63,944 bases of DNA from Eledone cirrhosa. Its lineage: Eukaryota. The DNA is taken from contig OZ024744.1 of the NCBI GenBank assembly GCA_964016885.1, positions 112,282,001 to 112,345,944 of the forward strand, given 5' to 3'. Below are positions 10,008 to 57,821 of the stretch, in pieces; the stretch's first letter is position 1; each line of letters starts with the position of its first letter. The translations under genes and the position numbers were made by a program. A model generated the notes under the pieces. That model was not told the origin of the DNA. It worked only from the letters and a program-made list of their open reading frames with translations, and did not search any database.

Positions 10008-13000
10008 ATCCAGGGTCTACTGCTGGATCTCTTGCCAGTTGGCTTTACTTTTAGAATATTTTCAGAGATTCTTTCCTGAGACATTCTAACCACATGTCCA
10101 TAGTATCAGAGCTGTGATCTCTCAATTCAGAGATTCTTTCCTGAGACATTCTAACCACATGTCATAGTATCAGAGCTGTGATCTCTCAATCCAGTGATTC
10201 TTTCCTGAGACATTCTAACCACATGTCTGTAGTATCAGAGCTGTGATCTCTCAATTCAGAGATTCTTTCCTGAGACATTCTAACTACATGTACATAGTAT
10301 CAGAGCTGTGATCTCTCAATTCAGATATTCTTTCCTGAGACATTCTAACCACATGTACATAGTATCAGAGCTGTGATCTCTCAATTCAGAGATTCTTTCC
10401 TGAGACATTCTAACCACATGTCCATAGTATCAGAGCTGTGATCTCTCAATTCAGAGATTCTTTCCTGAGACATTCTAACCACATGTCTGTAGTATCAGAG
10501 CTGTGATCTCTCAATTCAGAGATTCTTTCCTGAGACATTCTAACTCCATGTCTGTAGTATCAGAGCTGTGATCTCTCAATTCAGAGATTCTTTCCTAAGA
10601 CATTCTAACCACATGTCCATAGTATCAGAGCTGTGATCTCTCAATCCAGAGATTCTTTCCTAAGACATTCTAACCACATGTCCATAGTATCAGAGTTGTG
10701 ATCTCTCAATTCAGAGATTCTTTCCTAAGACATTCTAACCACATGTCCATAGTATCAGAGCTGTGATCTCTCAATCCAGAGATTCTTTCCTGAGACATTC
10801 TAACCACATGTCTGTAGTATCAGAGCTGTGATCTCTCAATTCAGAGATTCTTTCCTGAGACATTCTAACCACATGTCCACAGTATCAGAGCTGTGATCTC
10901 TCAATTCAGAGATTCTTTCCTGAGACATTCTAACCACATGTCCATAGTATCAGAGTTGTGATCTCTCAATTCAGAGATTCTTTCCTGAGACATTCTAACC
11001 ACATGTCCATAGTATCAGAGTTGTGATCTCTCAATTCAGAGATTCTTTCCTGAGACATTCTAACCACATGTCCATAGTATCAGAGCTGTGATCTCTCAAT
11101 TCAGAGATTCTTTCCTGAGACATTCTAACCACATGTCCATAGTATCAGAGTTGTGATCTCTCAATTCAGAGATTCTTTCCTGAGACATTCTAACCAGATG
11201 TCTGTAGTATCAGAGTTGTGATCTCTCAATTCAGAGATTCTTTCCTGAGGCATTCTAACCACATGTCCATAGTATCAGAGCTGTGATCTCTCAATTCAGA
11301 GATTCTTTCCTGAGACATTCTAACCACATGTACATAGTATCAGAGCTGTGATCTCTCAATTCAGAGATTCTTTCCTGAGACATTCTAACCACATGTCTGT
11401 AGTATCAGAGTTGTGATCTCTCAATTCAGAGATTCTTTCCTGAGACATTCTAACCACATAAACATAGTATCAGAGCTGTGATCTCTCAATTCAGAGATTC
11501 TTTCCTGAGACATTCTAACCACATGTCCATAGTATCAGAGCTGTGATCTCTCAATTCAGAGATTCTTTCCTGAGACATTCTAACCACATGTACATAGTAT
11601 CAGAGCTGTGATCTCTCAATTCAGAGATTCTTTCCTGAGACATTCTAACCACATGTCTGTAGTATCAGAGCTGTGATCTCTCAATTCAGAGATTCTTTCC
11701 TGAGACATTCTAACCACATGTCCATAGTATCAGAGCTGTGATCTCTCAATTCAGAGATTCTTTCCTGAGACATTCTAACCACATGTACATAGTATCAGAG
11801 CTGTGATCTCTCAATTCAGAGATTCTTTCCTGAGACATTCTAACCACATGTCTGTAGTATCAGAGCTGTGATCTCTCAATTCAGAGATTCTTTCCTGAGA
11901 CATTCTAACCACATGTCCATAGTATCAGAGCTGTGATCTCTCAATTCAGAGATTCTTTCCTGAGACATTCTAACCACATGTACATAGTATCAGAGCTGTG
12001 ATCTCTCAATTCAGAGATTCTTTCCTGAGACATTCTAACCACATGTCTGTAGTATCAGAGCTGTGATCTCCCGATTCAGAGATTCTTTCCTGAGACATTC
12101 TAACCACATGTCCATAGTATCAGAGCTGTGATCTCTCAATTCAGAGATTCTTTCCTGAGACATTCTAACCACATGTCTGTAGTATCAGAGCTGTCATCTC
12201 TCAATTCAGAGATTCTTTCCTGAGACATTCTAACTCCATCTACATAGTATCAGAGCTGTGATCTCTCAATTCAGAGATTCTTTCCTGAGGCATTCTAACC
12301 ACATGTACATAGTATCAGAGCTGTGATCTCTCAATTCAGAGATTCTTTCCTGAGGCATTCTAACCACATGTTCATAGTATCAGAGTTGTGATCTCTCAAT
12401 TCAGAGATTCTTTCCTGAGACATTCTAACCACATGTCCATAGTATCAGAGCTGTGATCTCTCAATTCAAAGATTCTTTCCTGAGACATTCTAACCACATG
12501 TCTGTAGTATCAGAGCTGTGATCTCTCAATTCAGAGATTCTTTCCTGAGACATTCTAACTCCATGTCTGTAGTATCAGAGCTGTGATCTCTCAATTCAGA
12601 GATTCTTTCCTGAGACATTCTAACCACATGACCATAGTATCAGAGTTGTGATCTCTCAATTCAGAGATTCTTTCCTGAGACATTCTAACCACATGTCTGT
12701 AGTATCAGAGTTGTGATCTCTCAATTCAGAGATTCTTTCCTGAGGCATTCTAACCACATGTCCATAGTATCAGAGCTGTCATCTCTCAATTCAGAGATTC
12801 TTTCCTGAGACATTCTAACCACATGTCCATAGTATCAGAGCTGTGATCTCTCAATTCAAAGATTCATTCCTGAGACATTCTAACCACATGTCTGTAGTAT
12901 CAGAGCTGTGACCTCTCAATTCAGAGATTCTTTCCTGAGACATTCTAACTCCATGTCTGTAGTATCAGAACTGTGATCTCTCAATTCAGAGATTCTTTCC

Positions 13001-15650
13001 TGAGACATTCTAACCACATGTCCATAGTATCAGAGCTGTGATCTCTCAATTCAGAGATTCTTTCCTGAGACATTCTAACCACATGTACATAGTATCAGAG
13101 CTGTGATCTCTCAATTCAGAGATTCTTTCCTGAGACATTCTAACCACATGTCTGTAGTATCAGAGCTGTGATCTCCCAATTCAGAGATTCTTTCCTGAGA
13201 CATTCTAACCACATGTCCATAGTATCAGAGCTGTGATCTCTCAATTCAGAGATTCTTTCCTGAGACATTCTAACCACATGTCTGTAGTATCAGAGCTGTC
13301 ATCTCTCAATTCAGAGATTCTTTCCTGAGACATTCTAACTCCATCTACATAGTATCAGAGCTGTGATCTCTCAATTCAGAGATTCTTTCCTGAGGCATTC
13401 TAACCACATGTTCATAGTATCAGAGTTGTGATCTCTCAATTCAGAGATTCTTTCCTGAGACATTCTAACCACATGTCCATAGTATCAGAGCTGTGATCTC
13501 TCAATTCAGAGATTCTTTCCTGAGGCATTCTAACCACATGTCATAGTATCAGAGCTGTGATCTCTCAATCCAGTGATTCTTTCCTGAGACATTCTAACCA
13601 CATGTCTGTAGTATCAGAGCTGTGATCTCTCAATTCAGAGATTCTTTCCTGAGACATTCTAACTACATGTACATAGTATCAGAGCTGTGATCTCTCAATT
13701 CAGATATTCTTTCCTGAGACATTCTAACCACATGTACATAGTATCAGAGCTGTGATCTCTCAATTCAGAGATTCTTTCCTGAGACATTCTAACCACATGT
13801 CCATAGTATCAGAGCTGTGATCTCTCAATTCAGAGATTCTTTCCTGAGACATTCTAACCACATGTCTGTAGTATCAGAGCTGTGATCTCTCAATTCAGAG
13901 ATTCTTTCCTGAGACATTCTAACTCCATGTCTGTAGTATCAGAGCTGTGATCTCTCAATTCAGAGATTCTTTCCTGAGACATTCTAACCACATGTCCATA
14001 GTATCAGAGTTGTGATCTCTCAATTCAGAGATTCTTTCCTGAGACATTCTAACCACATGTCTGTAGTATCAGAGTTGTGATCTCTCAATTCAGAGATTCT
14101 TTCCTGAGGCATTCTAACCACATGTCCATAGTATCAGAGTTGTGATCTCTCAATTCAGAGATTCTTTCCTGAGACATTCTAACCACATGTCCATAGTATC
14201 AGAGCTGTGATCTCTCAATTCAAAGATTCATTCCTGAGACATTCTAACCACATGTCTGTAGTATCAGAGCTATGATCTCTCAATTCAGAGATTCATTCCT
14301 GAGACATTCTAACCACATGTCATAGTATCAGAGCTGTGATCTCTCAATTCAGAGATTCTTTCCTGAGACATTCTAACCACATGTCTGTAGTATCAGAGCT
14401 GTGACCTCTCAATTCAGAGATTCTTTCCTGAGACATTCTAACTCCATGTCTGTAGTATCAGAACTGTGATCTCTCAATTCAGAGATTCTTTCCTGAGACA
14501 TTCTAACCACATGTCATAGTATCAGAGCTGTGATCTCTCAATTCAGAGATTCTTTCCTGAGACATTCTAACCACATGTCATAGTATCAGAGTTGTGATCT
14601 CTCAATTCAGAGATTCTTTCCTGAGACATTCTAACCACATGTCATAGTATCAGAGTTGTGATCTCTCAATTCAGAGATTCTTTCCTGAGACATTCTAACC
14701 ACATGTCATAGTATCAGAGTTGTGATCTCCCAATTCAGAGATTCTTTCCTGAAACATTCTAACCACATGTCATAGTATCAGAGTTGTGATCTCCCAATTC
14801 AGAGATTCTTTCCTGAGACATTCTAACCTCATGTCATAGTATCAGAGCTGTGATCTCTCAATTCAGAGATTCTTTCCTGAGACATTCTAACCACATGTCC
14901 ATAGTACCAGAGCTGTGATCTCTCAATTCAGAGATTCTTTCCTGAGACATTCTAACCACATGTACATAGTATCAGAGTTGTGATCTCTCAATTCAGTGAT
15001 TCTTTCCTGAGATATTTTAACCACATGTCTGTAGTATCAGAGCTGTGATCTCTCAATTCAGAGATTCTTTCCTGAGACATTCCAACCACATGTCATAGTA
15101 TCAGAGCTGTGATCTCCCAATTCAGTGATTCTTTCCTGAGACATTCTAACCACATGTCCATAGTACTGGAGCTGTGATCTCTCAATTCAGAGATTCTTTC
15201 CTGAGACATTCTAACCACATGTCTGTAGTATCAGAACTGTGATCTCCCAATTCAGTGATTCTTTCCTGAGATATTTTAACCACATGTCTGTAGTATCAGA
15301 GCTGTGATCTCTCAATTCAGAGATTCTTTCCTGAGACATTCTAACCACATGTCCATAGTATCAGAACTGTGATCTCTCAATTTAGAGAAGTAGCAGCTCC
15401 ACCTGGAGTGACTCTCTTAGCTCAAAGCTATGCACCCCATCGAGTAACGTTACTCCAAAGACCCATCTGAGGAATCCCATTTCAGCCACTTGTATTCATG
15501 ATTATATTCTTTCGGTCATTACCCAAGATTCATGACCATAGGTAAGGGTTGGCATGAATACTGAATTGAAGAGAGCGAGTTGAGCTTCTTCACCTACCAC
15601 CCTTCCGAGTACTGAATGCTGAAGCTGGCACATTACTGCACCAGCTCCTA
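10008..15650 (-). mobile_element. RTE LINE 3' fragment containing an internal satellite expansion
   Basis: Right flank translates FNSVFMPTLTYGHESWVMTER..AEMGFLR; left flank ENILKVKPTGKRSSSRPW; both are colinear with the copy at 28510-29690. Confidence 0.88.
10062..15388. repeat. 65-bp tandem satellite, ~82 copies
   Basis: Unit tcagagattctttcctgagacattctaaccacatgtccatagtatcagagctgtgatctctcaat; period checked at 10581 to 10646. Confidence 0.98.
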
Positions 15651-19561: not shown

Positions 19562-19700
19562 GATATATTTCTTTATTTGCCACAAGGGCGCACAAGAAAA
19601 GGGGCCAATACAAAGACACATGCTGGGGAGTTTACATAGAGTTGTGTAAAAATATTATTAAAACAAACAAATTTAATAATCAAAATCTCCAATAGGGGGG
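19562..19700 (-). mobile_element. Severely 5'-truncated Tx1 copy (3' UTR only)
   Basis: Similar to 19762-19892 (atttctttatttgccacaagggc..ggggagtttacata..ccaataggggg). Confidence 0.8.
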
Positions 19701-19997
19701 ATAAACAGACAGACAGAAAAGTAGACTTCAAGATAGGTAAACTGGAGAGACAGACGGATAGATAAATTTCTTTATTAGCCACAAGGGCACAAAAGAAGGG
19801 GACAAATACAAATGGGGAGTTTACATACAGGTATATGAAAATAAAACTATAAATAAAATAACAAATAACAATTGATATCCCCAATAGGGGGGAGGCGTTA
19901 CACAGGGGTTGTACACACCCCCAAAAAATGTACAACCCTCATCTCCAGGAGCACCAAGAGTGAGTACGCCCCTCCTCTTTTCCTCTTTTTCCTCAAC

Positions 19998-22900
19998 CTA
20001 CAGGCTTATATAGAGAGAAGGCCCAACCACTCGGGCCAACTTTGCCACATTCACCCACCTTTTATAAAATTTGCTGGGGTACAGCACCTCTCTCTCCATC
20101 CTGATTCTTCTTCCAAAATGATATTTGAAAAAACAAATCAGTTGTTCACCGGAGAGAAAGGTGTCTGACCTCAGCCCTTTTAACCTCGTCCACCATATAA
20201 CCTCTTTCACCATAGCCATAACACATAGGAAAACCGCCTCTCCTTCGGAAGGAGGGTGGCAGTTTGATCATGACAATGGACTCGGTGGTCAACTGGATTG
20301 GTCCCACCCGTGACAAAAGTCGTTCTACATAGCGCCACAGGTAGGTAACGCCCGGGCAGTGTACAAATGCGTGCGCAATGGTTTCCTCGTCGTGCACGCA
20401 TCTCGGATAGATCTTTTTCGAAGGGTCCCTGCTCGGGCGCCTGTGTCTGTAGAGCTTGTCTCGAACTGGTAGAGCTCCTCAGTAGCACTGCCAGGCCAGG
20501 AACTTTTGGAAGTTCTCCATCGGTCCCAGGCGGAAGGTCCTACCGAACAGACTGGCCAGTTTATCCTCCTCTACGCCTAGAGTTTCTCCGAGCGTGTCGT
20601 CGCACTTACTGCGGATCAATCTTCTATAGAATGACGAGGTGGAGTCTCCATTGATCACCGGGTCCGTTTGCCAGAGGACTGTGAATGCCTGAGCACATTC
20701 GATGTGCCAGTTGCCCATTTTCCTCGGTCTTTGCTTGACCTAGGACTGCAGCTCGGTCAGCAGGACGAGTCGTGGGAAGGCTTGCCTCACGAACGGGGCC
20801 CACACTGGTTGTCTGGTGAGGAATACGTGGAGGTGCCGCAGCCTAAGCGCGTGCTTGCGCATCGTCAGCCACGGCATCCCCAGCCCTCGATTTGAAGGGT
20901 GTTGGCAGCAGATGGATCTTCTCACCAAAGGAGCCCGTTTCTTCCAAAGGAATTGGAAGAGCGCGCGCTCCATTTTGGTGAGAGTTTTGGCTGGAGAAGG
21001 CTCAACGGTCAAGCGGTAGTAGATGACGGACGCTATAAAAGTGTTCGCCACCTCCGCTCGACCTTTCAAGGATAGTTTGGACTCAGCCCACTTCTGGGTG
21101 AGCGCAAACACCTTGGCCATCACCTCATTGCAGTTCTTCTCCACCTGGAGGTCCGGGCCAAACCAAACCCCGAGCAGCTTTACCGGTCCTTCCGTCCAGT
21201 GTTCAACGATGCCATCGGCTTGCCTCTCCACGTTCCAAATCGACAGATTTGTCCCGGTTCAGCTTCGCTCCTGTGAACCTTTCGTATTCCTCCAGTAAGG
21301 TGCCGACCTCCCCGATTTGCGAGGCGCTCGACACCATTACTGTCACGTCGGCGGCGTAGGCTGATGCCGCTTTCCGCAGTCCCGGTTCCAAAGGGATGCC
21401 TTGCAATAGCTCCAACTTCCGCAGTAGTGGCTCGAGAGTCAGTACGTACAGAAGAGAGGAGAGAGGGCATCCCTGTCAGATGGATTGCGTGATATGGAAT
21501 GGCTCCGAGAGGTAGCCGTTCACCTTGACCCTTAAGCAGACGTTGCTGCTGTGCATTGCAGCAATCCAGCCCCTGAACACGGGTCCGAAGCCTGCCGCCT
21601 CGAGCACCACATCCAGGTAACGATGGTCAACCCTATCGAAAGCCTTAGACTGATCCAAGTTGATCAGGGCCCCACCGAAGCCGGGTTTACACCCTACCCT
21701 CTCTATGATGTATCGCATGAGGTGGAGGTTGTCGTGTATGGACCTGGTCGGGATTGCGCATGTCTGCGCTTCTCCCACCAGGTTTTCGACGACAAGCGCC
21801 AGCCTCTTTGCCAACCCTTGGCCAAAATCTGTAACTCTGTGTTTAGCAGAGATATGGGCTGGAAGTTGCTTATGTCATCCCCCTTATTCTCGTCCTTCCT
21901 GACTAATGTGACTACGCCCCTGGCCACAGAACTGGGAATTCTCCCATTCTGCTGCCAGTTGCAGTAGACCGCTTCCAGGAGACCAGAAAACAAGTCCGGC
22001 ATTGCTACGTAAAATTTGTAGGGTAGACCGTGAAGACCTGGAGATTTGCGTTTTCCACATTGGCTCAGCGTGTCCCCTATCTCAGCGACCAAAATAGGCC
22101 TTTCGCAGAACTTCGCCTCACTGTTCGAGAGTCGCGGCAGGCCGTCGAGGTATGGACCGAAATCCATAGCCCCTCCCGGCGCGCCGCCCCGCCCGAACAG
22201 TTGAGCAAAGTGCCGCTGAAAGGCCGCACACATCTGCTTCGGCTCACGTATCACGCGTCCATCTTGGTCCTTCAAAGACCGAATCGTGGACTTGTTGCCA
22301 CTTTTCGCCTCCGTCACTCGGGCCCAGCTAACAGCTTTGGCTCCTTCGTTTCCCAGTGCACGTATTTTGCGCCTGACAACGCAGCCTTCATGCTTTGCGT
22401 CGAAGAACTGGTCCAAGGCCTTTCTCATCACTAGCACACTGGCTACGTTGCCACTCTTAAGTGCCTCTTCTACTTTATCTTCCAGTTCCTTTTCGGTTTT
22501 ATTTCTATCTAACACAAATTCTTTACTAAAACCTATTGAGTCTAATCTAACTGCCCTCTTGAGAGAGTACCACCATCTGTTGTTGACAATGGCCCCCGTC
22601 AAGTGCTGCTTAACTAAAGTGCTAACCCGTCTACTGTAAGCTTTGCATGTCATTAACGATAAGTTCAGCTTCGAGTAGCCTGGTCCCTGTCTATGGGTTC
22701 TGTCAAGGTTGACTAAGCAGGTCACTAGTTTGTGATCTGAATAGGCAACCATGAACATTTGTGAACAGCTTAACATGTCCCTATCACTAACTTTAACTAG
22801 AAACCTATCTAGGTACGATCTAGATGTTCCGCTGTGCTAGGTCCACGTCCATGTCCACAGTGGCACAGTTGGAAAATCTAGTCGATATCTATCGGCCAGT

Positions 22901-23403
22901 TGTAATCGGCTGATTAACTGTTTGAGGCTGTTACATCCCTCTCTATCGGAACATGCTCCCACATAGTCCCAACATGCATCTAGGATTCCTAACAAGTCCC
23001 CCACTAACAGCAAGGAGCGGGACGTTCCCAGAAAAGTCTCTAGACATTTGAAGAAGTCTGGCGACAGTGTCCAGAACGGAGCATATGCGGCCACGAACCT
23101 GAAGGCTCCACTTTCACTACCGTCAATGTCTAGGACCACCAGTCGACCCTTTCAGGTCCAGATGTACTATGTGTTGCGAGGTCCAAGTGTTTCCACAGCA
23201 AAACGGCAACCCCGTCTGACAGAGAGATGTGAGATCTCAAAGTCGTCGAAGATGGGGGCCAGTTGTCGCTCGCTGTGGATCCTGGACTTGCAAATGGCTA
23301 CTACATCCATACTGTGCGACCTGGGGTCGTTTAAGAGTTTGCCCTGTTTCCAGGGCATCCCCAGGCCGTGTACATTCACACACCCAACTCTTATATTGGC
23401 CAT
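19998..23403 (-). pseudogene. Tx1 ORF2 (APE endonuclease, reverse transcriptase, Zn finger), frameshifted
   Basis: VGCVNVHGL, AYSDHKLV, KSPGLHGLP, FQPISLLNTELQILAK, LDQSKAFDRVDH, AYAADVTV (YADD mutated), VKLLGVWFG, SLKGRAEVAN, EETIAHAFVHC. Confidence 0.92.
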
Positions 23404-23439
23404 GTTGGTGCTGAAAAGTTAAAAGAAGAGGAAAAGAAA

Positions 23440-25286
23440 TCACTCACCTCTTCGTCTCCTGGGGACCAGGCTGCACAATTTCGATGGGGGTGTTTGGTGT
23501 GGTGGTGGTTTCTGGCGGGGTGGGGACAGAGATGTTTGGTGGGGAGGGGTGTCTGGTGGGATGGGGGTGGGGAAACATTTTAACACGACTCGATTGTAGG
23601 GTTTGACGCAGGGGTTACCTACGTCGTTAGGAAATTTTCCTTTTAACTGTTTTTGTGTGTCCATGGAGATCCTAATCATCTTAAGATTAGGATTCTCCGA
23701 AGAGTGTGTAAAAGTTTTCCCTTCGGTATCCACTGAAGGGTTTTTATATATGGTGTCTGTTAAAGTTTTACTGTTAGTATTTATGTAGGTGTAACATTTG
23801 TTGTGTTGTGTTGCTTTTTGTCTGTGGTTCTTGTGTGTGTTTACGTTTTGTAGTAGGTGTTTTGTTTTCAGGAGGGGGTGTTTTTGTTTGTGCTGTTTGC
23901 GTCGCTTGTGTTGGTGTTTGTGTGTTTGTTGCATTTTTGTTTGTGTTATGTCTTTTCTTTTTTCTTTTTACTAGTCGGAAAGGCTCTCCCTCATCCTCAC
24001 TGGGTGACGATGATGAGGCCTCATCCGTGTTGTTGGGGAGGGGTACATTTGGGGAGCTGCTATGTGTGTGGGTGTTTCTGGAGTTGTTTTAGGTGGGGAG
24101 GGGTTGGGTGGGACTGTGTTTATCGTTTGTTTTGTTGTCACTATTTTTTTATGCTGTTGTTGTTGTGGTGGTGGTGATTGTTGTGCTGGTGTTGCAGGTG
24201 TTGCCAGTAGTGCCTTTTTTTGGCTAGTTAGCCGAGGACAGGAAGCTCTCAGGTGAGCCCTGCTTAAGCAGTGGTAATATGAGGGCCGCCTACCCTCGAC
24301 CGAACTGTTTATGTATATAAGCCCATCCAGCAGCACACTTCCGGGATCCTAGCTATTCGTTCTGGTGTCATTTGGACCAGAATTTCCAGGCTAGTTCCGC
24401 TGAACAGGTCGCCGGAGGACTTACCTACCGATATTATTGAGTCTTTTTCGAGGTTTAAAAGTCCACATAGTACCCACCAAATATCAATATTTGGTGTGAT
24501 ACTTTGGATTTTTATTTTCTGTGTTCTTTTCCCCATGTAAGTGGGGGAAAAGGTGAACAACAGTGACACAATTGGCGACACAGAATATTTCTGTGCTGTC
24601 AGTTGGTCTTTCATCAGAATGGATAAACTCCCGTAGAGTCTACCCTTCTGAATGAAAACAATATCTTTTAAGGCATCTTCTAAAACCAACTCAATTTCGC
24701 CTTGTGAAAGTTGAGTCGGTTTTCGGGTTTTGTTTGAGACTGTCCTGAAAACCACAGTTTTCAAAGCAGCTTCTCTTCGCAAATCTGGGGGAGATGAGAC
24801 TGTCCTGAAAACCACAGTTTTCAAAGCAGCTTCTCTTCGCAAATCTGGGGGAGAGTTTATGGAGAATGATCCGTTCTCCCCAAAAGTTATGTACTGTCTG
24901 GCGTTATTCAAAAGCTCATATGCATTTGAAATATCCACCGGAGTGTACCTTACCGTTTTCTTTACGGTTTGCGCAAACGATATTTAGTCGTTTACTTCCT
25001 TGTTGCAGTTATTGGTCTTGTTGTTGTTGTTGTTATTGTTGTTTTCGTTCATAGCATTGTTGTTGTTGCTGGTGCTGCTGGTTGTGTTGTTTTTGTTCAT
25101 TGTTTCAAACTTTTTGTTTTGGTTCATTGCCATGGCAACGTCAAGTTGTCGGTTAGCAGGTGAACAAAATCCTTCCTCTGGCTGACCTTTGTCTGAGACA
25201 TCTGCTACTATAACAGTGGAAGGGGGAAGCTGTAAGCATATCTTCCCCTTTCCTCCTTCGAATGTTGGTGAAGAAGCTGTGGACAT
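23440..25286 (-). pseudogene. Tx1 ORF1 (gag-like nucleic-acid-binding protein), interrupted
   Basis: Successive minus-strand ORFs upstream of ORF2; VEGRRPSYYHCLSRAHLRASCP is a CCHC knuckle with the first Cys mutated; low-complexity C-terminus. Confidence 0.75.
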
Positions 25287-25803
25287 TTTTTTTTAAATGT
25301 TAGTTTTTTTACCCCAAAAAATTTACCCCCAAAAATTTTTTATTAACTATTTCGCCTAAAAGCGAGACTGACCAGATCAAAATTTGACCTGGCAGTCCCT
25401 CTACAAATTGGTATAAAAATGAAGGTTCACAGTTAGAAATTTCTATAGAAATTTAGGCAGAACTTACCCAGCAAGTTTCACGCGTGTGTCCATCCCAGAG
25501 ATAGCTAGCTATCTATCTGTCTGTCTCTATCTAACTAGAGAGACAGACAGATAGCTAGATAGAGAGGGAGGAAGGGAGACATCTAGCTAACTGGAGAGAG
25601 ATAGCTAGCTCAACAGATAGACAGCTAGATAGATAGATAGGGAGATGGCTAGCTAACTAGACAAAAAGGGTAAAGAAGGTTGGATTAAAACAACTGTTCC
25701 TCTGTGTTAAAGACCTATTAAATGCCATTACAGTCTCTTAGTTGCAGCAGGGAATATTTTCCTCTTATTTCTCCACCGAACCCTTCTCGTTTTGTTTCTA
25801 TAG

Positions 25804-38453: not shown

Positions 38454-38772
38454 GGAGGCACATGGCTTAGTGGTTAGAGCATTGGCCTTGCAATCGAAAG
38501 GTTGTGAGTTCAATTCTCAGATGTGATGTGTTGTTTCCTTGAGCAAGACACTTTATTTCACATTGCTCCAGTTTACTCAGCTGTAGAAATGAGATGATAG
38601 GGACTGGGGTCCCTATCATTCCACTGCAAAGTGGTCGTGGAGGTGCCACGGCAAAAAAGCACCCAGCACTCACTGTAAATGAGGTTGGTGTTAGGAAGGG
38701 CATCCAGCTGTAGAAGTCAAGCTAGAATCAGTTCCCGTCCCACCCTTGCAAGCAGGGAAAAGTGGACGTAAA

Positions 38773-38803
<31 letters not shown>
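38454..38803 (+). mobile_element. SINE family A, tail type 2
   Basis: Matches 32666-33003; (gat)n tail. Confidence 0.9.
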
Positions 38804-38804
<1 letters not shown>

Positions 38805-38969
38805 ATCATGATTAATATAGAAACAGCTTCTACAGGACTAGAAGAGTTTCATACTGTGGTTCCCCCGCCTCTGATTGAACCTGGGACTAATATATATATA
38901 TACACACATATATACACACACACACACACATATATGCACACATACACACACAAACACACGTATATATAT

Positions 38970-39672
38970 ATAGGCTTTTTCATCAAAATGAAAGGCAGAC
39001 TATATGATGCTTGTATACGAACAGCAATGTTACATGGTAGTGAGACCTGGGCACTGTGTGTAGAGGACCTGTGTAGATTAGAAAGAAACGAAGCTTGCAT
39101 GCTCCGATGGATGTGTAATAGTAATATATGCAAACGGCAAAGTATAAATGAATTGAGAGAGAGACTGAACATAAGAGGAATCAAATGTTGTGTGCAGGAG
39201 AGGAGATTACGCTGGTATGGACATGTCATGCGTATGAAGAATGACAGCTGCATAAAAAGGTGCAGAGCACTAAAAGTCAATGGAAGTCATGGAGTGGGGA
39301 GACCCAAGAAGACCCGGGATGAGGTGATAAAAGCGGACCTTACCCAATTGCACCTCTCAAAGGCGATGACACAGGACAGAGATCTCTGGCACCATTAATA
39401 CAGAAGACCTGACATCCCACGGGAACAAGCCGAAGCTGAAGCATATGGACAGTATGCACCACCCCCATGCCATCTACCCCCACACAAATCCCATGCAGAA
39501 AGTCTGAAATATATATCAAGTGAAGCCTCCAGCCCACACTGTAAAGCGGTCGTGTAGATGTCACAGCAAAAAGCACCCAGAAATAGGTTCTGTATGAGCA
39601 AGACATGGTCACCTGACCTGGCATTGCTCGAAACAGGATAACTTGTCTAAGCAACGTCAAATGGTGATGATG
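38970..39672 (+). mobile_element. RTE LINE 3' fragment, same family as 1-1528
   Basis: KGRLYDACIRTAMLHGSETW..ERRLRWYGHVMR..GRPKKT; its 3' UTR shares blocks with the SINE A body and tail. Confidence 0.9.
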
Positions 39673-44319: not shown

Positions 44320-45150
44320 GACATACATAATCTTCTCTGGTTTCCTAATGTTCTCTACCAGATACGTCATCTTACTCTCATTCATTCTCAGCCCCACATT
44401 CATCAACGCAATCTCCACCTCCTGCATCAACTCCTCTGCCACCTTCACTGTGTTTGTCACCAGAACTATGTCATCAAATTTAGCATCTGATATCTTTTTC
44501 GCCTTAACTCTCCTGCTCTGAACCAGTGTTACAGTAAAGCCAGAGTCCTAGTGTTTCTCCAGTGCAAGGCGCATACAATATTCAAGAGAAGCTGCTAGGA
44601 TTGGTTGAGGACTTCATGAATCTGGGAGCAAAGATTGGGAATACAGAAAATGATGTGGTGGAGAGGAGGAGCAAAGCCCAGGCAGTGTGCCACAGTTTGA
44701 GGTCAATGTGGAAGTCAGACCTTCGTAAAGACCTGAAGATCCGTCTCTGTAGTGGAGTCTGTGCTGCTGTATGGGTCTGAGACCTGGACACTGACCAAGA
44801 AACTCACTCAGATGGTAGATGGGTGCTACAGGAGAATGCTGAAGATGGCTCTGAACATTAATCAGTATACACTGAGGATGAAGGACTCAGAGCTATACGG
44901 GAGCCTCCCAAAAGTCAGCTCAAAAGTAACACAAAGGAGACTGAGGTTAGCTGGACATGCTCACCGACATCCAGAGTTGGCACTGCACTCAGTGGTCCTG
45001 TGGGAGTCCCTACACGGACACACTAGAAGAGGAAGACCAAGGTTGACATATATTGATGCCCTAAGGACAGACACTGGTCTCTGGGAGATGCAGGACATGG
45101 TGGCCATGATGAATGAAGGACAGAGACTGCTGGAGAGAACTCATCCTGGA
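44320..45150. mobile_element. RTE-type LINE with an inverted 5' segment (44320-44548 minus, 44560-45150 plus)
   Basis: Minus: GFTVTLVQSRRVKAKKISDAKFDDIVLV..VGLRMNESK; plus: VEDFMNLGAKI..VESVLLYGSETW..RRLRLAGH..RGRPRLTYID. Confidence 0.8.
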
Positions 45151-45183
45151 TTTCAGGAATTTTACCTGCTCTACATATATATA

Positions 45184-47330
45184 CAGACCTGCCAACCTCT
45201 AAAATCCCAAAACAGAGAGTACCATGAAAAACAATGCCCCAAAACAGGGAGAAATGAGGCGAAATGGGCAGATTTTACATAATTAAAGTTATACCCATTT
45301 TCACAAGAGAAGACATCTCTCACCCACCCCAAAGGATATTGCAAATGTTTATGGAAGAACATCAGTAATGATTTCAAATGAAATTTAATGAATAAAGTCA
45401 TTCAAATAAACCTAAGAATTTCAATGACAAATTAAAAAAAAAAGCAAAATTAACAAAAGAGATCCAGTTGCAACGATAAGAATAAATCATCAACATCATA
45501 AAATTCCAGGATTATACAATTGCATGTTTTTGTAGCTTTTTTTGCTGAATCGACAACATCTTGAGTGGGGACGCACTTGTGACAGGGCATTTCGCTCTCA
45601 GGAACAAATGTCTTCATCATTAAAATGTTGGATAAAATTCCGTCAAGTTTCAGAGATGAGCAGGAATCAGTTTTATTCTTTCTCACCATGCTGAACAATC
45701 GTTCCGCATCAGCGCTGCTGTGAGAAATGACCAAAACAATTTCTGCAAGTTTACACAGATTCTTAAAACGTTTCAATTGAGTAGCAGCTATTTGCATTTC
45801 ACCTATGTTCCATCATAAAGCAATCGACTCGATAATGAAAGACCTCATTTTTCTTGTCATCTACTCCATCCACATCTACGCCGCACAAGCAGTGTCACTG
45901 ATCTCACCATCTTTCATAGTCTGGTAATCAAATATTTTATCATATAAATCATCCACCTTGATGTTTCCAATGGATGATACAGAGTTGTACTTAGTAAAGA
46001 AAAACTCAACATTTTCCCATGTGGCATCGTTTTACTTCATAACAGACACTATTTGTTATAATTTCATCATTCAATGGAAATTTATTTTGAATGTAACAAA
46101 GATTCTTTGAAATATGCTTGTACGGCTTTGTGAAATACTACATTTTCCTCCTCTGTGATACTTCCGTCATTTAAAAGTCTCCTCAATTGGCTTTAGTCAC
46201 CTCTCCCATATATATAAATTGAGGATCTTTAAATAGGTCATCGTTATCAATATCAATGTCACTTATGGAAGTAATCGCCTTCATTTCTTCCCAAGATTTT
46301 CCATGGATGACTTGAGTAAATGAATTGTAGGCCCTTCTCTCTGCAACAATAAATTGAAGTTTGTAAAGACTGATATAACGGAACTGTGAAATAAAAAAGC
46401 AGGCTCGAAAAAAGGATTTGCAAACCGAGTTCAAAGCCTTTTAAAACGTTCAGCACTCCGACTTTCATTCAGAAAATAAGACTTCAAACTTGGAAATTTT
46501 TTCAAAATTCTGTTTAACCCTTTAGCATTTACATTACTCCATATTTACTATTGTATTTTCATGATAAAGACTTTATCTCATATTATTATCCCACATAATA
46601 TAAAAACTTTGAGATCTTTGAGAACAATACCTTAACATAAGTATGAGCAGCTGGTTATGGCCAGTTTGAACAGAAAGAGGAAAGAGAATTCTGATCAGGT
46701 ATAGCCGGTTTAAATGCTAAAGGGTTAAACAATGTTCTAATGACAACCATCGAACCAACAAATGTTTTAGGACCTGCTGATGTTCCTGCCTTCTTAAATG
46801 AAACTAAATTTGAAACTACCTGAAAATGCAGTCTTTTTCTTCTTTGGTTCAATTTCAATCTCATTAGTCACTATATACTTCTTCAGAAACGTTATTATCT
46901 GCTTCCTTTGACATAGAGAAAAGTCCACAACATTCTTCCGAAACAAAACTAAAGCAATGAATTTCACAACACACCGAAGAGTAATTTCTTTACTGCATAC
47001 GTGGTCACATGTGATTGGTTGAAATCATTCGATTTTATTATTCAAAGCAAAATAGCCACCAAAATAATCTTCATCTCGTAGGTTCTTTCCTGTCTCGTCT
47101 GAATAAATGTGATAAACAACTTTTCTGTAATCTCCTTTATCAAATAAACAAACATCTTTTAAAAAGAATGTCTGGAATAAGCAGTCACAAAACACAAAGC
47201 AAATAGAAATATTGAAAAATATTTGAAACGGGGAGTTTTCATGGGAGATTTTGCAAGTTTGTCAAAAATGGGGAAATTTAATGTCCTAACGGCGAAAAAT
47301 GAGCCAAAACGGGGAGAGTTGAGAGGTCTG
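45184..47330 (-). mobile_element. hAT-like DNA transposon, internally deleted, with transposase pseudogene
   Basis: TIRs CAGACCTgcCAAC / GTTGagAGGTCTG; hAT dimerisation motif LAEIVLVISHSSADAERLFSMVRKNKT at 45450-45797; no matching TSD found. Confidence 0.82.
46518..46724. mobile_element. piggyBac-type MITE nested in the hAT element
   Basis: TTAA on both sides (46514-46517, 46725-46728); perfect 14-bp TIR CCCTTTAGCATTTA / TAAATGCTAAAGGG. Confidence 0.88.
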
Positions 47331-48390: not shown

Positions 48391-49189
48391 GGCGATATCC
48401 AATTTTAGCGGCCTAAATGCCGCTTACTTGCTGCTTACTTCAATGTATGAGGCTATTCCAACAAATTTACATTCCCCCTTTTTTAGCCGTTAAAAGAAAT
48501 ATAGATTTATTTATTGTTTTTTTTTGCGATTTATTTGCCACTGGGTCATAGATTTCTTTATTTGCCCCCTTTTTGTTTGTTTGTTTGTTTGTTTTTTTGC
48601 GATTTATTAGCCTTTTGGGGTCACACACACCCCCGTAGAAAGTGTGCGACCTTTCTGCCAGGGAGCACAGAGAGAGAGGGGGATGCTCCCTTCTTCTCTT
48701 ACCTGTACAAGCCGATATAGAGAGATGGCCCGCTTACACGGGCCATTATTGCTACTTTCACCCATCTTTCATGGAATTGGCTGGGACTGAGTGCCTTTTT
48801 CTCCACCTTGATCCTTCTTTCGAAGTGGTATCGGAAGAAGAGGACCATTTGTTGGCTGGTGACATATCCCCACAGGTAAGAGAAGAAGGGAGCACCCCCC
48901 TCTCTCTGTGCTCCCTGGCAGAAAGGTCGCACACTTTCTACGGGGGCGTGTGTGACCCCAAAAGGCTAATAAATCGCAAAACAAACAAACAAACAAACAA
49001 ACAAAAAAGGGTCAAATAAAGAAATCTATGCCCCAGTGGCAAATAAATCGCAAAAAAAAAAAACAATAAATAAATCTATATTTCTTTTAACGGTTAAAAA
49101 AAGGGGAATGTAAATTTGTTGGAATAGCCTCATACATTGAAGTAAGCAGCAAGTAAGCGGCATTTAGGCCGCTAAAATTGGATATCGCC
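48391..49189. mobile_element. Foldback DNA element (Merlin-like ends) with ~316-bp TIRs, 8-bp TSD and captured Tx1 3' sequence
   Basis: TSD GTCAATTA at 48383-48390 and 49190-49197; ends GGCGATATCC..GGATATCGCC; arms 48391-48706 and 48872-49189; interrupts a SINE. Confidence 0.88.
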
Positions 49190-51007: not shown

Positions 51008-52690
51008 GGAGTTGGAGCTATTGCAGGGCATCCCTCTCGAACTGGGACTTCAGAAAGTGGTGTCAGCCTACACCGACAACATAACAGTTGTGGTGTCGAG
51101 CACCTCACAAATCGAGGAAGTCGGCACCTTACTGAAGGTTCACAGTAGCGAAGCTGAACCAGGATAAGTCCGTCGGTTTGCAACTTGGTTCGTGGAGAGG
51201 CAAACCGATGCCTTCCGATGGCGTCGTCAGATGCTGGACGGAAGGACCGGTGAAGCTGCTCGGGGTCTGGTTTGGTCCGGACCTCCAGGTGGAGAAGAAC
51301 TGGAATGAGGTGACGGCCAAGGTGTTTGCGCTCACCCAGAAGTGGGCCGAGTGCAAACTATACTTGAAAGGTCGAGCGGAGGTGGCGAACACTTTTATAG
51401 GTCCGTCATCTACTACCGCTTGACCGTCGAGCCTTGTCCAGCCAAAACTCTCACCAAAATGGAGCGCGCGCTCTTCCAATTCCTTTGGAAGAAACGGGCT
51501 CCTTTGGTGAGAAGATCCATCTGCTACCAACACCCTTTAAACGGAGGGCTGGGGATGCCGTGGCTGATGATGTGCAAACACGCGCTCAGGCTGCGGCACC
51601 TACACGTATTCCTCACCGGACAACCGGTGTGGGCCCTGTTTGTGAGGCAAGCCTTCCCACGACTCGTCTCGCTGAGCGAGCTGCAGTCCTGGGTCAAGCA
51701 AAGACCGAGGAAAATGGGTGACTGGCACATCGAATGTGCTCAGGCGCTCACAGCCCTCTGGCAGGCGGACCCGACGATCAGTGGAGACTCCACTTCATCA
51801 TTCTATAGAGGGTTGGTCCGCAGCAAGTGCGACGACGCGCTCGGAGAAACTCTGGGCGTAGAGGAAGGCGAACTGGCCAGTCTGTTCGGTAAGACCTTCT
51901 GCCCAGGACCGATGTACAACTTCCAAAAGTCCTTGGCCTGGAAGTGCTACCGAGAAGCTCTACCAGTTCGAGACAAGTTCTACAGACATGGGCACCCGGG
52001 TAGGGACCCTTCAAAAAAGATCTGTCCGAGATGCATGCGAGACGAAGAAACCGTCGTGCACGCATTCGTACACTACCCGGGCGTCACCGATATGTGGGGC
52101 TATGTAAAACGACTATTGTCGCAGGTGGGACCAATCCGGTTGACCACCGAGTCCATTGTCATGATCAAACCACCACCCTCCTTCAAAAACGAAGGTGAGG
52201 CGGTTTTCCTTTGTGTGATAGCTATGGCGACAGAGGTTGTATGGTGGACAAAGTTAAAAGGGCTGAGGTCAGACACCTTTCTCTTCGGCCAACAACTGGT
52301 TCTTTTTTTTCAAATACCACTTTGGAAGAAGAATCAGGATGGAGAGAGAGGTGCTGTACCCCAGCAAGTTTTATGAAAGGTGGGTGAAAGTGGCGAGAAT
52401 GACCCGAGTGAATGGGCCTTCTCTCTATATCAGCCTGTAGGTTGAGGAAAAAGAGGAAGAGAGGAAGAGGGTACTCACTCTTCGTACTCCTGGAGATGAG
52501 GGTTGCACATTTTTTCGGGGGTATGTGTTACCCATATGTAATGTCTCTCCCTATTGGGGAAAATCGATTAATTTTAAATTGCATTTGTGATAGTATTTTA
52601 CATGTTTTTATTGTATGTAAACTTCCCCCTTTGTATTTGTCCCCTTCTTTTTTGCCCTTGTGGCTAATAAAGAAACATATCTATCTATCA
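51008..52690 (+). mobile_element. 5'-truncated Tx1 copy, same family as 19762-25496
   Basis: VKLLGVWFGPDLQVEKNW..CPRCMRDEETVVHAFVH; 3' UTR ctaataaagaaac followed by atatctatctatc. Confidence 0.92.
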
Positions 52691-52924: not shown

Positions 52925-54305
52925 AATGAATCATCAGAAAGAAACTGATCACGTTCCTCGAGGAAAATGACTGCCTATCTAACACTTCGCTTGGGAAGAA
53001 GCTGCTTTACATAGTTTTTACACTACGACTGGGTACTGAAACAACTGCTAGACAGCTCACATGTGCACGTGATATATCTTGACTTTACGAAGACATTTGA
53101 CAAGGTCGACCACGGAATGATGTGTCACAAATTACACAGTCTCGGCATAACTGGAAAAGTAGGTGAGTGGTTGCATGATTTCTTAAAAGACAGAAGTCAG
53201 ATGGTTGCAGCCAACAGGGACCTCTCAAAGGAAACATCAATAACAAGTGCGGTGCCCCAAGGCGCAGTCTTGGGACCACTACTGTTTTCGGTGGCTCTCT
53301 CAAACATGCCCTCTGTAGTACATACAACATCCCTCACTAGCTATGCTGATGACACAAAGATATCACAGGCAATCAAAAACCTGGCTGATGCTGCCCTTTT
53401 AGAACAAGATCTGGATGCCATATACAAATGGGCTGAAGACAACAACATGCAATTTAATGCTGGAAAATGTCAAGCCCTACAATATCAACCTACTAACACA
53501 AGGACTGTACAACACAGCTACACCGGACCAGGAGGGATTGAAATTCCTGTGTGGAAATCGATACGAGACCTGGGTATAGACATGAGTGACAATACATCTT
53601 TTTCTTCACACATCATGAAGGTGGCGATAATGTGCAGATGACTCGATGGTTGGATCCTGAGGACTTTCCGGACAAGAGACCGAGACAACATGTTGACACT
53701 ATGGAGGACATTTGTCCTAAGCTGCCTGGACTATTGCTCCCAGCTGTGGTCACCCCAGTATCAAACTAACCACGGAGTTTGAGGCAATCCAACGAAGCTA
53801 CTCCAAGAGGATTGCCACAATGAAGGCGATAAGCTCCTGGGAGAGGCTAAAAGAACTAAACCTCTACTCCTTGGAATGAAGACAGGAGATATATGCAGTG
53901 ATATACATGTGGAAAATTCTGGAGGGACTAGCACCAAACTTTGACATAGGAAGCTGGACCAACCCCTGAACAGGACGTTACAGAATGGCACATCTAGAAT
54001 AAGGAGCAGATACTGCAATAGCCTAGGGTTCAAAGGTCCAACTATTCACCCAGCTGCCAAGAAATTTGAGAGATCTGCATGGTATGGACGTTGATGTTTT
54101 CAAGAAACATCTTGAAACTCTGCTATCAAGGATCCCGGATGAGCCCACAACACAGTACGAAGGAAACCTAAGGGCAGCAGCAAGAAACTCCCTCTTACAC
54201 CAATGGCCAGCCAACACAGGCTGGATATAGAACATGTAGCAACAAGGGCAGTGTCCCAGCATGGCCTCAACCGGATGGCTGGAACTGGTAAAAGAATAAA
54301 AGAAT
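52925..54305 (+). mobile_element. CR1-group LINE 3' fragment (RT)
   Basis: YLDFTKTFDKVDH, VPQGAVLGPLLF, YADDTKI, IRDLGI, LDYCSQLWSP, ERLKELNLYSLE; tail ending in aaaagaat repeats. Confidence 0.9.
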
Positions 54306-55133: not shown

Positions 55134-56738
55134 TACCACATGCATATACATATACTTCCAACACATATTTCCAATTTATCCCAGTGTAGAAAACAGACGT
55201 AAAACCATGATGATGTTCACACACACACACACACACATATACACATATATACATATATATTTATTATTATTATGAGACCTACTGCAAATTCCTTAACCTC
55301 ACAGCCACCCATGTCTGGAATAGCTTTCCAACAACAGGGAAGTCCTGATAAATTTAATTAGCTTGTTCTTGGTGCTTACCACCATAGAAGTCAGTTCTGA
55401 TTGGAATGGTATTCCAGCCATGACCACACAGCATTGCTTTCAGACAGAGAGTCTAATATTACATTATACAATGTGTCCTTTATGTGAAGGAGATTGTTGA
55501 TTGTACATTTGCATATGTAGTTGTAGATATATGTATATGTGTGTGAGTGCATTTGAATGCCTCCATGTGTGCATACAAAACTATTCTAATCACTGTAGAA
55601 AAACTTGTTGGACATAGAAAATATAGTGTACAAAATAATAGTGTACAACATTTCCATGACACCAATGAGTGGAAAAGTCATAGGCAAAATGTTGGCACTA
55701 CAACCAAGAATGTTTTCTGTAAAAGATTGTATCTCATATCCTGTTTAAACTACACAATCTGTAAAGTGACTTAGGACACGGACAGGGAATTTTTAACACC
55801 CAGCAGTTGATATACTGTCAACAGAACCACTTTAGGTATATTTACTAGTAAATAAATATATACACCCAGTACTGCTTTCCTAACACTGCTGTTTGTGTTA
55901 CATACCAAACACCCTGTTTATTTTTAACAAGCTAATATGAAAAGCTCTATATCAGAGCTTTCCCAAAATGTTCAAGTATGCTCAAATATAAGCTGACCCC
56001 AATGTTATGTTGTAGAAATGGGCAAAAATCCATAAAGCTGAGGCAGCTAATAATGTTTAGATTGTGCAGTTTTGAAATTTGGAGAATATATTTATGAAAG
56101 TTTTAATATTTTGGTATTTAAAATGTTTTAAGTGTCGTTTAGAGTATAGTTTTTGTTTCACAATTCCATTATGTAATGATTTTTTTTACCAATTTCTTAT
56201 TGTTTTGAAGGCCATATTCAAAAACGAATTTCATGTGAAAGTCAAACTGGTGTAACAATCACCTTTTTATGTAGAATTTTGGAGTTGGTGGAAATTGGCA
56301 AAATATTGACCATAAATCTATGGCACCCTCACTCCCCGCCCATTTTACCATTCATTTTTTTTTTTTGTCAAATACTTCTCAGCTTATATACGAGTATATA
56401 TGGTAGTTTCTCATCATAAGTTTAATGTCCTACAGCACATTAACTAAATTTTCTTTAAAAACAGTAAACACCACTATGACTGTGTCACATTAAAAATTAA
56501 AGCCTTTACCCTAATACTACAAACTTTCACAATGATCTGTCCACTAATAAAGATACTATAAACATTTGAATTAACAAACCTGCTTTTAGATATTTTCTGC
56601 TAAATCATTATAGTATATAAAGTTTTGTAACATTAAATATATTACATGTCACCAGTTATGTACCTAGAAGTTATCAGATCTTGAGTATATGATACATCAC
56701 AGTCAAATATTAGTGAAGATACATTGAAATTTGACTAT

Positions 56739-57821
56739 GGTGATACACCTGGATATAATTGGTGACACACCTGGATATAACTGGTGACACACCTGGACAT
56801 AATTGGTGACACACCTGGATATAACTGGTGACACACCTGGACATAATTGGTGACACCCCTGGATATAATTGGTGACACACCTGGATATAACTGGTGACAC
56901 ACCTGGATATAATTGGTGACACACCTGGATATAATTGGTGACACACCTGGACATAATTGGTGACACACCTGGATATAATTGGTGACACACCTGGATATAA
57001 TTGGTGACACACCTGGATATAACTGGTGACACACCTGGATATAACCGTTGACACACCTGGATATAACTGGTGATACACCTGGATATAACCGTTGACACAC
57101 CTGGATATAACTGGTGACACCCCTGGATATAACTGGTGACACCCCTGGATATAACCATTGACACACCTGGATATAATCGTTGACACACCTGGATATAATC
57201 GTTGACACACCTGGACATAACTGGTGACACACCTGGACATAATGGTGACACACCTGGACATAACTGGTGACACACCTGGACATAACTGGTGACACACCTG
57301 GATATAACTGGTGACACCCCTGGATATAATTGGTGACACACCTGGATATAACTGGTGACACACTTGGACATAACTGGTGACACACCTGGACATAACTGGT
57401 GACACACCTGGATATAATTGGTGACACACCTGGATATAATTGGTGACAGACCTGGATATAATTGCTGACAGACCTGGATATAATTGGTGACACACCTGGA
57501 TATAATTGGTGACACACCTGGATATAATTGGTGACACACCTGGATATAATTGGTGACCACCTGGATATAATTGGTGACACACCTGGATATAACTGGAGAC
57601 ACACCTGGAGATTATTGGTGACACACCTGGATATAACTGGAGACACACCTGGAGATTATTGGTGACACACTTGGATATAACTGGTGACACACTTGGATAT
57701 AACTGGTGACACAACTGGATATAACTGGTGACACACTTGGATATAACTGGTGACACACTTGGATATAACTGGTGACACACTTGGATATAACTGGTGACAC
57801 AACTGGATATAATTGGTGACA
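56739..57821. repeat. 22-bp minisatellite, ~49 copies
   Basis: Unit ggtgacacacctggatataa(t/c)t. Confidence 0.97.

Follow-up and report, generated by a model that had tools for sequence, protein, structure and literature searches.

The element and its setting

The window analysed here, a stretch of 63,944 nt from the genome of Eledone cirrhosa, carries a decayed LINE of full length on its minus strand. The element is a microsatellite-targeting member of the L1 group (Tx1-like), and two short intron-like units lie in it, the first in the 5′ UTR, the second across the end of ORF1. The features referred to below are the following (^ marks a splice site):

19767..25496, minus strand: full-length decayed Tx1-like LINE of subfamily A, from the GGGATGG start to the 3′ end AATAAAGAAA
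25497..25660, minus strand: decayed target tract, (TCTA)n-like, that precedes the 5′ end, recognised from its sequence and from family copies with a like flank
25468..25496, minus strand: exon 1, in which an ATG at 25493 opens a 9-codon uORF with its TAA inside the donor
25401..25467, minus strand: unit 1, a 67-nt AT-rich intron-like segment (GTAAGT ... CTAAC ... TTTGTAG) of the 5′ UTR
23444..25286, minus strand: ORF1, broken in this copy and ending in PGPQETKR, with its stop TGA within the second donor
24419..24424, minus strand: strong, non-conserved donor TAG^GTAAGT inside ORF1, scoring above the 5′ donor
23411..23447, minus strand: unit 2, 37 nt: a donor, AG^GTGAGT, that spans the ORF1 stop, then a pyrimidine tract and CAG
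19998..23403, minus strand: ORF2 (APE endonuclease, RT, zinc finger), broken in this copy, intact in copies L062 and L105
19568..19701, minus strand: short piece of the 3′ end of a related element, following the main copy in tandem (73% in self-BLAST, with a second AATAAAGAAA at 19577)

The window copy is dead, with stops and frameshifts in both ORF1 and ORF2, and the reading frame of its ORF1 was set from the intact ORF1 of L105. Its relatives L062 and L105 each hold an intact ORF2 of 1145 codons, the two being 99% identical. The L062 protein matched PF03372, PF00078 and PF13966, and its best PDB match is human L1 ORF2p (E 6e-52), with R2 at 6e-22. The intact ORF1 of L105 contains a CX2CX4HX4C motif, for which the Pfam zf-CCHC match reaches only E 0.23, below the cutoff. 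ORF2 thus has the N-terminal APE, the RT and the C-terminal zinc finger by which L1-group/Tx1 elements are recognised. The insertion habit of the Tx1 clade, which targets multicopy sequences and inserts in tandem, is likewise seen in the (TCTA)n or (TTA)n flanks and in the arrays. Across 30 aligned loci the GGGATGG start directly adjoins the (TCTA)n-like tract, and family copies flanked by (TCTA)n are arranged as head-to-tail arrays; in types H, H2 and I the target is (TTA)n. The protein and structure searches with the element's proteins returned no named Tx1 reference among their matches; the label Tx1 is presumptive, and microsatellite targeting is consistent with that clade.

Several further traces of the family were noted. 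The window copy has an exact 60-bp tandem duplication in ORF1 (24735-24854) that is private to it among the copies compared. A 5′-truncated second copy lies at 51010-52685 on the plus strand and is 86% identical to the 3′ 1.7 kb of the main copy, and a 3′ fragment at 48560-48900 on the minus strand comes from a Tx1-like subfamily that is further removed (69% at the DNA level), its ORF2 ending in TACAG^GTAAGA. Among the relatives that target (TTA)n, the loci L329, L333 and L334 are young and have both reading frames intact, ORF1 with 654-714 codons from stop to stop and ORF2 with 1139 aa. The ORF2 proteins P0002-P0037, many of them full length at about 1150 aa, lie at 37-47% identity, and the next relatives, below 30%, are clearly separate. 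Elsewhere in the window there are a satellite array at 10061-15388 (82 copies of a 65-bp unit with 94% matches), a 22-bp minisatellite at 56738-57821 (49 copies, which leave frames without stops on the minus strand) and other LINE-like fragments at 462-938, 2181-2705, 38772-39398, 44737-45282 and 53015-53641. RT domains were found in the fragments at 2181 (together with a weak PHD-like match) and 53015, the remaining fragments being judged by eye.

A short intron-like unit in the 5′ UTR

An earlier note on this DNA had paired the 5′ donor with an acceptor just before ORF2 and had proposed that a 5′ ATG mini-exon is spliced in frame onto ORF2, skipping ORF1. Its motifs and arithmetic are correct. 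From the minus-strand ATG at 25493-25491 there are 26 nt to GG^GTAAGT (G at 25467), the AG before ORF2 ends at 23411, and 7 nt separate it from the ORF2 ATG at 23403. The sum of 33 nt is in frame and the interval measures 2057 nt. Exon 1 plus donor has 79 exact matches in the 3.0-Gb genome searched (G000), so the sites are subfamily-wide, and 62 long copies include 39 A-type junctions, of which 37 retain the AG at the 23411 position. A donor of such strength within the first 80 nt arose in 1.7% of shuffles. Absent from the note are a nearer acceptor at 25401, a donor at 23447 that covers the ORF1 stop with the AG 37 nt further on, and the higher-scoring donor inside ORF1 at 24424. To judge from these sequences, the outer sites of two separate units were most likely taken as a pair.

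In unit 1 the donor at 25467 faces the acceptor TTTGTAG at 25401 over 67 nt, with CTAAC between them. Among 78 distinct 5′ ends, 57 match donor and acceptor alike, giving a length of 67 nt in 55 of them; of the remaining 21 ends, 15 have no acceptor match and 6 no donor match. A GT..AG unit of 60-73 nt that starts within the first 65 nt is present in nine of ten 5′-end types, type I having no clear one; the length and score windows were chosen after the data had been seen, the types are related and so not independent, and C2, E and F comprise single or few copies each. In dinucleotide shuffles the 5′ unit had P values of 0.0025 (A), 0.012 (D), 0.037 (B), 0.06 (H), 0.09 (H2a) and 0.36 (H2b, where the donor is weak). 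The GC content of the seven units measured is 0.19-0.28 against 0.38-0.64 in the flanks. The A and H units, 67 and 66 nt long, are 56% alike against a shuffle mean of 52%, that is, no more than expected by chance.

The unit turns over as a pair of sites. Subfamily B has lost both orthologous sites, GT having become AG in 30/30 copies and TAG having become TAA or TTA in 30/30, and carries a shifted unit in which GTGAGT (27/30) is followed at 60 nt by CAG (23/30), a shift common to B and E. In H2b the acceptor is displaced by 6 nt where TAG has turned into TTG. As read from the sequence, the 5′ unit is relocated to new sites in two types. Copies lacking unit 1 were absent among the genomic copies examined.

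The 5′ donor also sits in an inverted repeat, AACTT-N7-AAGTT. A separate inverted repeat (GACTGCCAG...CTGGTCAGTC), seen by eye, follows the unit-1 acceptor at 25396-25365 on the minus strand and in the homologues. The use of the mini-exon as a first coding exon of ORF1, joined by removal of unit 1, was considered and rejected as a general explanation, as H2 meets a stop after 26-28 codons in 6/6 copies. In 36 A copies such removal leaves frames 0, 1 and 2 in 11, 15 and 10 cases owing to unstable A/T runs.

A second unit across the end of ORF1

Thirteen ORF1/ORF2 junction types, each represented by one natural copy, were assembled from array neighbours and from a search with a distant ORF2 N-terminus. 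They share 59-96% DNA identity in the 5′ region of ORF2, and the H-group ORF2s are 67-69% identical to that of L062. ORF1 ends in Arg-stop inside a donor that reads G^GTRRGT in 13/13 types. Donor positions -1, +1, +2, +5 and +6 are invariant in all of them, compared with 6 of 83 fourfold sites; part of the motif is dictated by Arg plus stop, +1, +5 and +6 being the positions free of coding constraint. The G at +7, which is not complementary to U1, is also kept in 11/13 types. The stop codon itself varies between TAA, TGA and TAG, and in B the stop has moved while GTGAGT has stayed.

The spacer after the donor is 28-54 nt long and 72-82% pyrimidine. An AG before the ORF2 ATG lies at -7 in A, B and G and at -1 in F and is lacking from the other 9 of 13 types, a pattern for which the tree needs two changes. 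In the window copy the next AG, in ORF2 codon 5 at 23390, lies 58 nt from the unit-2 donor. In 12/13 types the first AG past ORF1 stands in phase 2 relative to ORF2, and all 13 keep the ORF2 ATG. AATAAA occurs within ORF1 in 7/7 representatives. Of 33 metagenome relatives, 14 distant ones (26-32% identity) were inspected, and none showed a clear ORF1-end motif. An arrangement with ORF2 as the intron, from the ORF1-end donor to TAG^G at the ORF2 stop, was rejected: although TAG^G is found throughout the TCTA group, ORF2 closes with TAA^A in H and H2, and no such join occurs among 30 inspected of 35 matches.

Chimeras and internal deletions

Non-standard continuations after the A/B ORF1 end amount to 31 matches, of which 17 and 3 form two chimeric groups (20 places read). 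The 17-copy chimera continues into the last 23 nt of a subfamily C ORF1 and the 3-copy chimera into a 76-nt ORF1-end segment. Both begin exactly at the ORF1-end donor, both partners are elsewhere preceded by CAG, and only the AG is shared. Upstream of the joint the 17-copy chimera is 95% identical to an A copy and downstream 98% identical to C, with 2 nt of microhomology. The sequences suggest that the chimeras likely arose by splicing across tandem copies in read-through RNA, a template switch at the 2-nt microhomology being the alternative; they represent two events only and come from a donor-anchored search. A like chimeric join was found neither for the C donor (5 matches, with a pattern unable to catch a short C-type ORF1-ORF2 join) nor for the H donor (8 matches).

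Full-length copies very often carry internal deletions (43 in 62, from L061-L223), mostly with 0-6 nt of microhomology. These deletions were considered as splice products and rejected: GT..AG ends were found in 0/43 against L070 and in none against L075.

Possible roles of the units

The reading favoured here, at about even confidence, is that the two short units, retained in all copies examined, act mainly as sites recruiting U1 or the spliceosome, and that the RNA is copied unspliced. It starts from the two units as observed, their conservation combined with site turnover, the absence of intron-less copies and the donor-exact chimeras. U1 influences transcription and polyadenylation in other systems. 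By analogy, unit 1 would overlap the internal promoter and raise transcription, and the donor at the end of ORF1 would keep the AATAAA sites of the A-rich ORF1 from being used for early polyadenylation. ORF2 would be translated from its own ATG through ordinary reinitiation. Occasionally the second donor may splice over the whole downstream ORF2/ORF1 stretch into the next head-to-tail element, and such array-spanning splicing could yield new ORF1-ORF2 combinations, while unspliced RNA would serve as the template for reverse transcription.

Rather unlikely is the view that the signals are look-alikes, the 5′ motif being a DNA element of the internal promoter and the ORF1-end motif a context for termination and reinitiation, with splicing as rare noise. 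The inverted repeat around the 5′ donor is kept in B without the GT, and a DNA element rather than splicing may explain that donor, just as a RUNX3 site accounts for the 5′ donor of human L1 in the portion of that study available (PMC5860796). A strong donor also exists by chance inside ORF1, and no intron-less copy appeared in any genome search for such joins. Against this, B and E lost GT and AG as a pair and relocated them, H2b displaced its acceptor by 6 nt, units that cannot be aligned have a fixed length, and the chimeras fall exactly on the donor.

A division of labour, in which unit 2 is spliced out to give an in-frame ORF1-ORF2 polyprotein and only the unspliced RNA is reverse transcribed, is improbable. 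It would make sense of the phase-2 first AG in 12/13 types, which occurs at four places (-7, -1, +8 and +14), of the AG at +8 in D, where the +14 AG is missing, and of the Arg-stop inside the donor in intact H/H2 copies, and the join would restore an Arg codon. The +14 AG, however, is simply part of an Arg codon of ORF2, the intron would be only 31-62 nt long and mostly shorter than unit 1, and the donor is in phase 1 in the young subfamily B and, by sequence, in the 17-copy chimera. Fused copies number 0 among 50 inspected of 123 matches, a sample that includes all 17 listed AAG cases, and none occurs among the continuations after the A/B ORF1 end; matches for the H group number at least 150. 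A broader version in the form of a two-intron gene appears similarly doubtful. In it, spliced RNAs would make the proteins (with the 5′ intron removed and either the ORF1-end intron removed, giving the ORF1-ORF2 fusion, or exon 1 joined onto ORF2), the intron-retaining RNA alone would be copied, and splicing along arrays would shuffle ORF1 and ORF2 between subfamilies. Such an arrangement, if true, would break the cis-preference rule of L1.

The least probable reading is that of the earlier note, in which the mini-exon spliced onto ORF2 is a dedicated source of ORF2p. The join is in frame in A, and in H2 an ATG exon of 23 nt, in phase 2, would match the frame of the first AG beyond ORF1; in-phase exon-1 ATGs are seen only in these two. 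Donor, acceptor and phase are not conserved together across subfamilies. Nine of 13 types have no AG before the ATG. B shares the acceptor and has an almost identical ORF2, yet its donor GT is replaced by AG. Exon 1 of C2, D and H contains no ATG, so that the skip would delete the ORF2 start, and the AC type runs into a stop in its ATG frame ahead of the donor. The 62 long copies with an A 5′ end comprise 39 with an A junction, 5 with a junction lacking the AG and 18 with no junction found, which places the mini-exon on elements without the AG in 5/44 classified copies. Given the absence of the AG, the loss of the donor in B and the patchy exon-1 ATG, the donor, the ATG and the acceptor do not travel together through the family. 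The nearer acceptor and two intervening donors would also compete for the splice.

Retrocopies with the exact exon 1-ORF2 join number 0 in the genome (at most one mismatch) against 79 exact unspliced 5′ ends, a test of low power: an ORF1-less RNA would retrotranspose poorly, and the zero is weak evidence alone since the comparable class of spliced human L1 copies is only 11 of 6,609 (PMC5860796). Exon 1 followed by a base other than G gave four matches, none joined to an acceptor of the element; two have changed donor bases and two run into unrelated DNA. Contigs of four runs of unrecorded kind, compared with L062, contained 15 joints in 304, none at the element's splice sites, and are no evidence either way. 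What stands of the proposed wiring is that the splice signals look selected; a dedicated mRNA joining the ATG mini-exon to ORF2 is unsupported, and by sequence a minor skip product may occur in A and H2.

Short intron-like units that are kept and formed anew within an L1-group family would demonstrate that selection can act on splice-site recruitment in a LINE, and the choice of unspliced RNA as template would become testable. The chimeras joined exactly at the donor point to splicing as a way for the observed swapping of ORF1 and promoters between LINE subfamilies to come about. To our knowledge, introns in LINEs are expected to be lost, since the copied RNA is the mRNA, and Penelope-like elements are the described exception. 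Retained short intron-like units in Tx1 or L1-clade elements were not described in the literature searched, which lay outside most subscription journals and the Repbase annotations.

Comparison with known systems

Foamy viruses express pol from its own spliced mRNA, and this was the strategy that the earlier note proposed. They are LTR retroviruses, whereas in the LINE described here the donor-acceptor pair needed by a pol-mRNA model is not conserved. Nor is a spliced ORF2 or pol RNA confined to foamy viruses, as had been presumed. Human L1 makes a spliced, translatable RNA encoding ORF2 only (SpORF2), according to the available part of that report (PMC2896524). Spliced ORF2-only LINE RNA is thus already known, which makes the original idea less novel than it was held to be.

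Within the LINEs, the microsatellite elements Kibi and Koshi of the Tx1 clade resemble the present family in an L1-group ORF2, a preference for microsatellites and tandem insertions, as far as the available text describes them (PMC4494074). Their targets are (TC)n and (TTC)n in place of the (TCTA)n and (TTA)n found here, and the same portion of the source makes no mention of splice signals (PMC4494074). L1-Tx1 families have been listed in an octopus, introns going unmentioned in the part of the paper available (PMC13282606).

Human L1 shares with the present element a conserved 5′-UTR donor, a possible ORF1-skipping RNA that codes for ORF2 and a majority of unspliced RNA, as described in the accessible portions of two studies (PMC2896524, PMC5860796). 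Its cryptic sites are spread over hundreds of bases and have left spliced copies (SpIREs, 131 of 6,609 full-length copies), whereas the units described here are compact, show paired turnover and have left none that was found (PMC2896524, PMC5860796).

The nearest likeness is to Penelope-like elements. These encode a GIY-YIG nuclease and a telomerase-like RT, and the present LINE, with its APE-RT protein and its ORF1, is not a member. Splicing has been demonstrated for the introns of Penelope and Chlamys-3_cRei, while the LINE unit is known from sequence, and the second unit, at the ORF1 stop, has no counterpart in the accessible part of the Penelope account (PMC8557442). In Penelope of Drosophila virilis and in Chlamys-3_cRei, the same source reports a 5′-UTR intron (75 bp in Penelope) that overlaps the internal promoter and is kept after retrotransposition (PMC8557442). 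The LINE carries a short intron-like unit in its 5′ UTR, of 60-73 nt, that is retained in its genomic copies.
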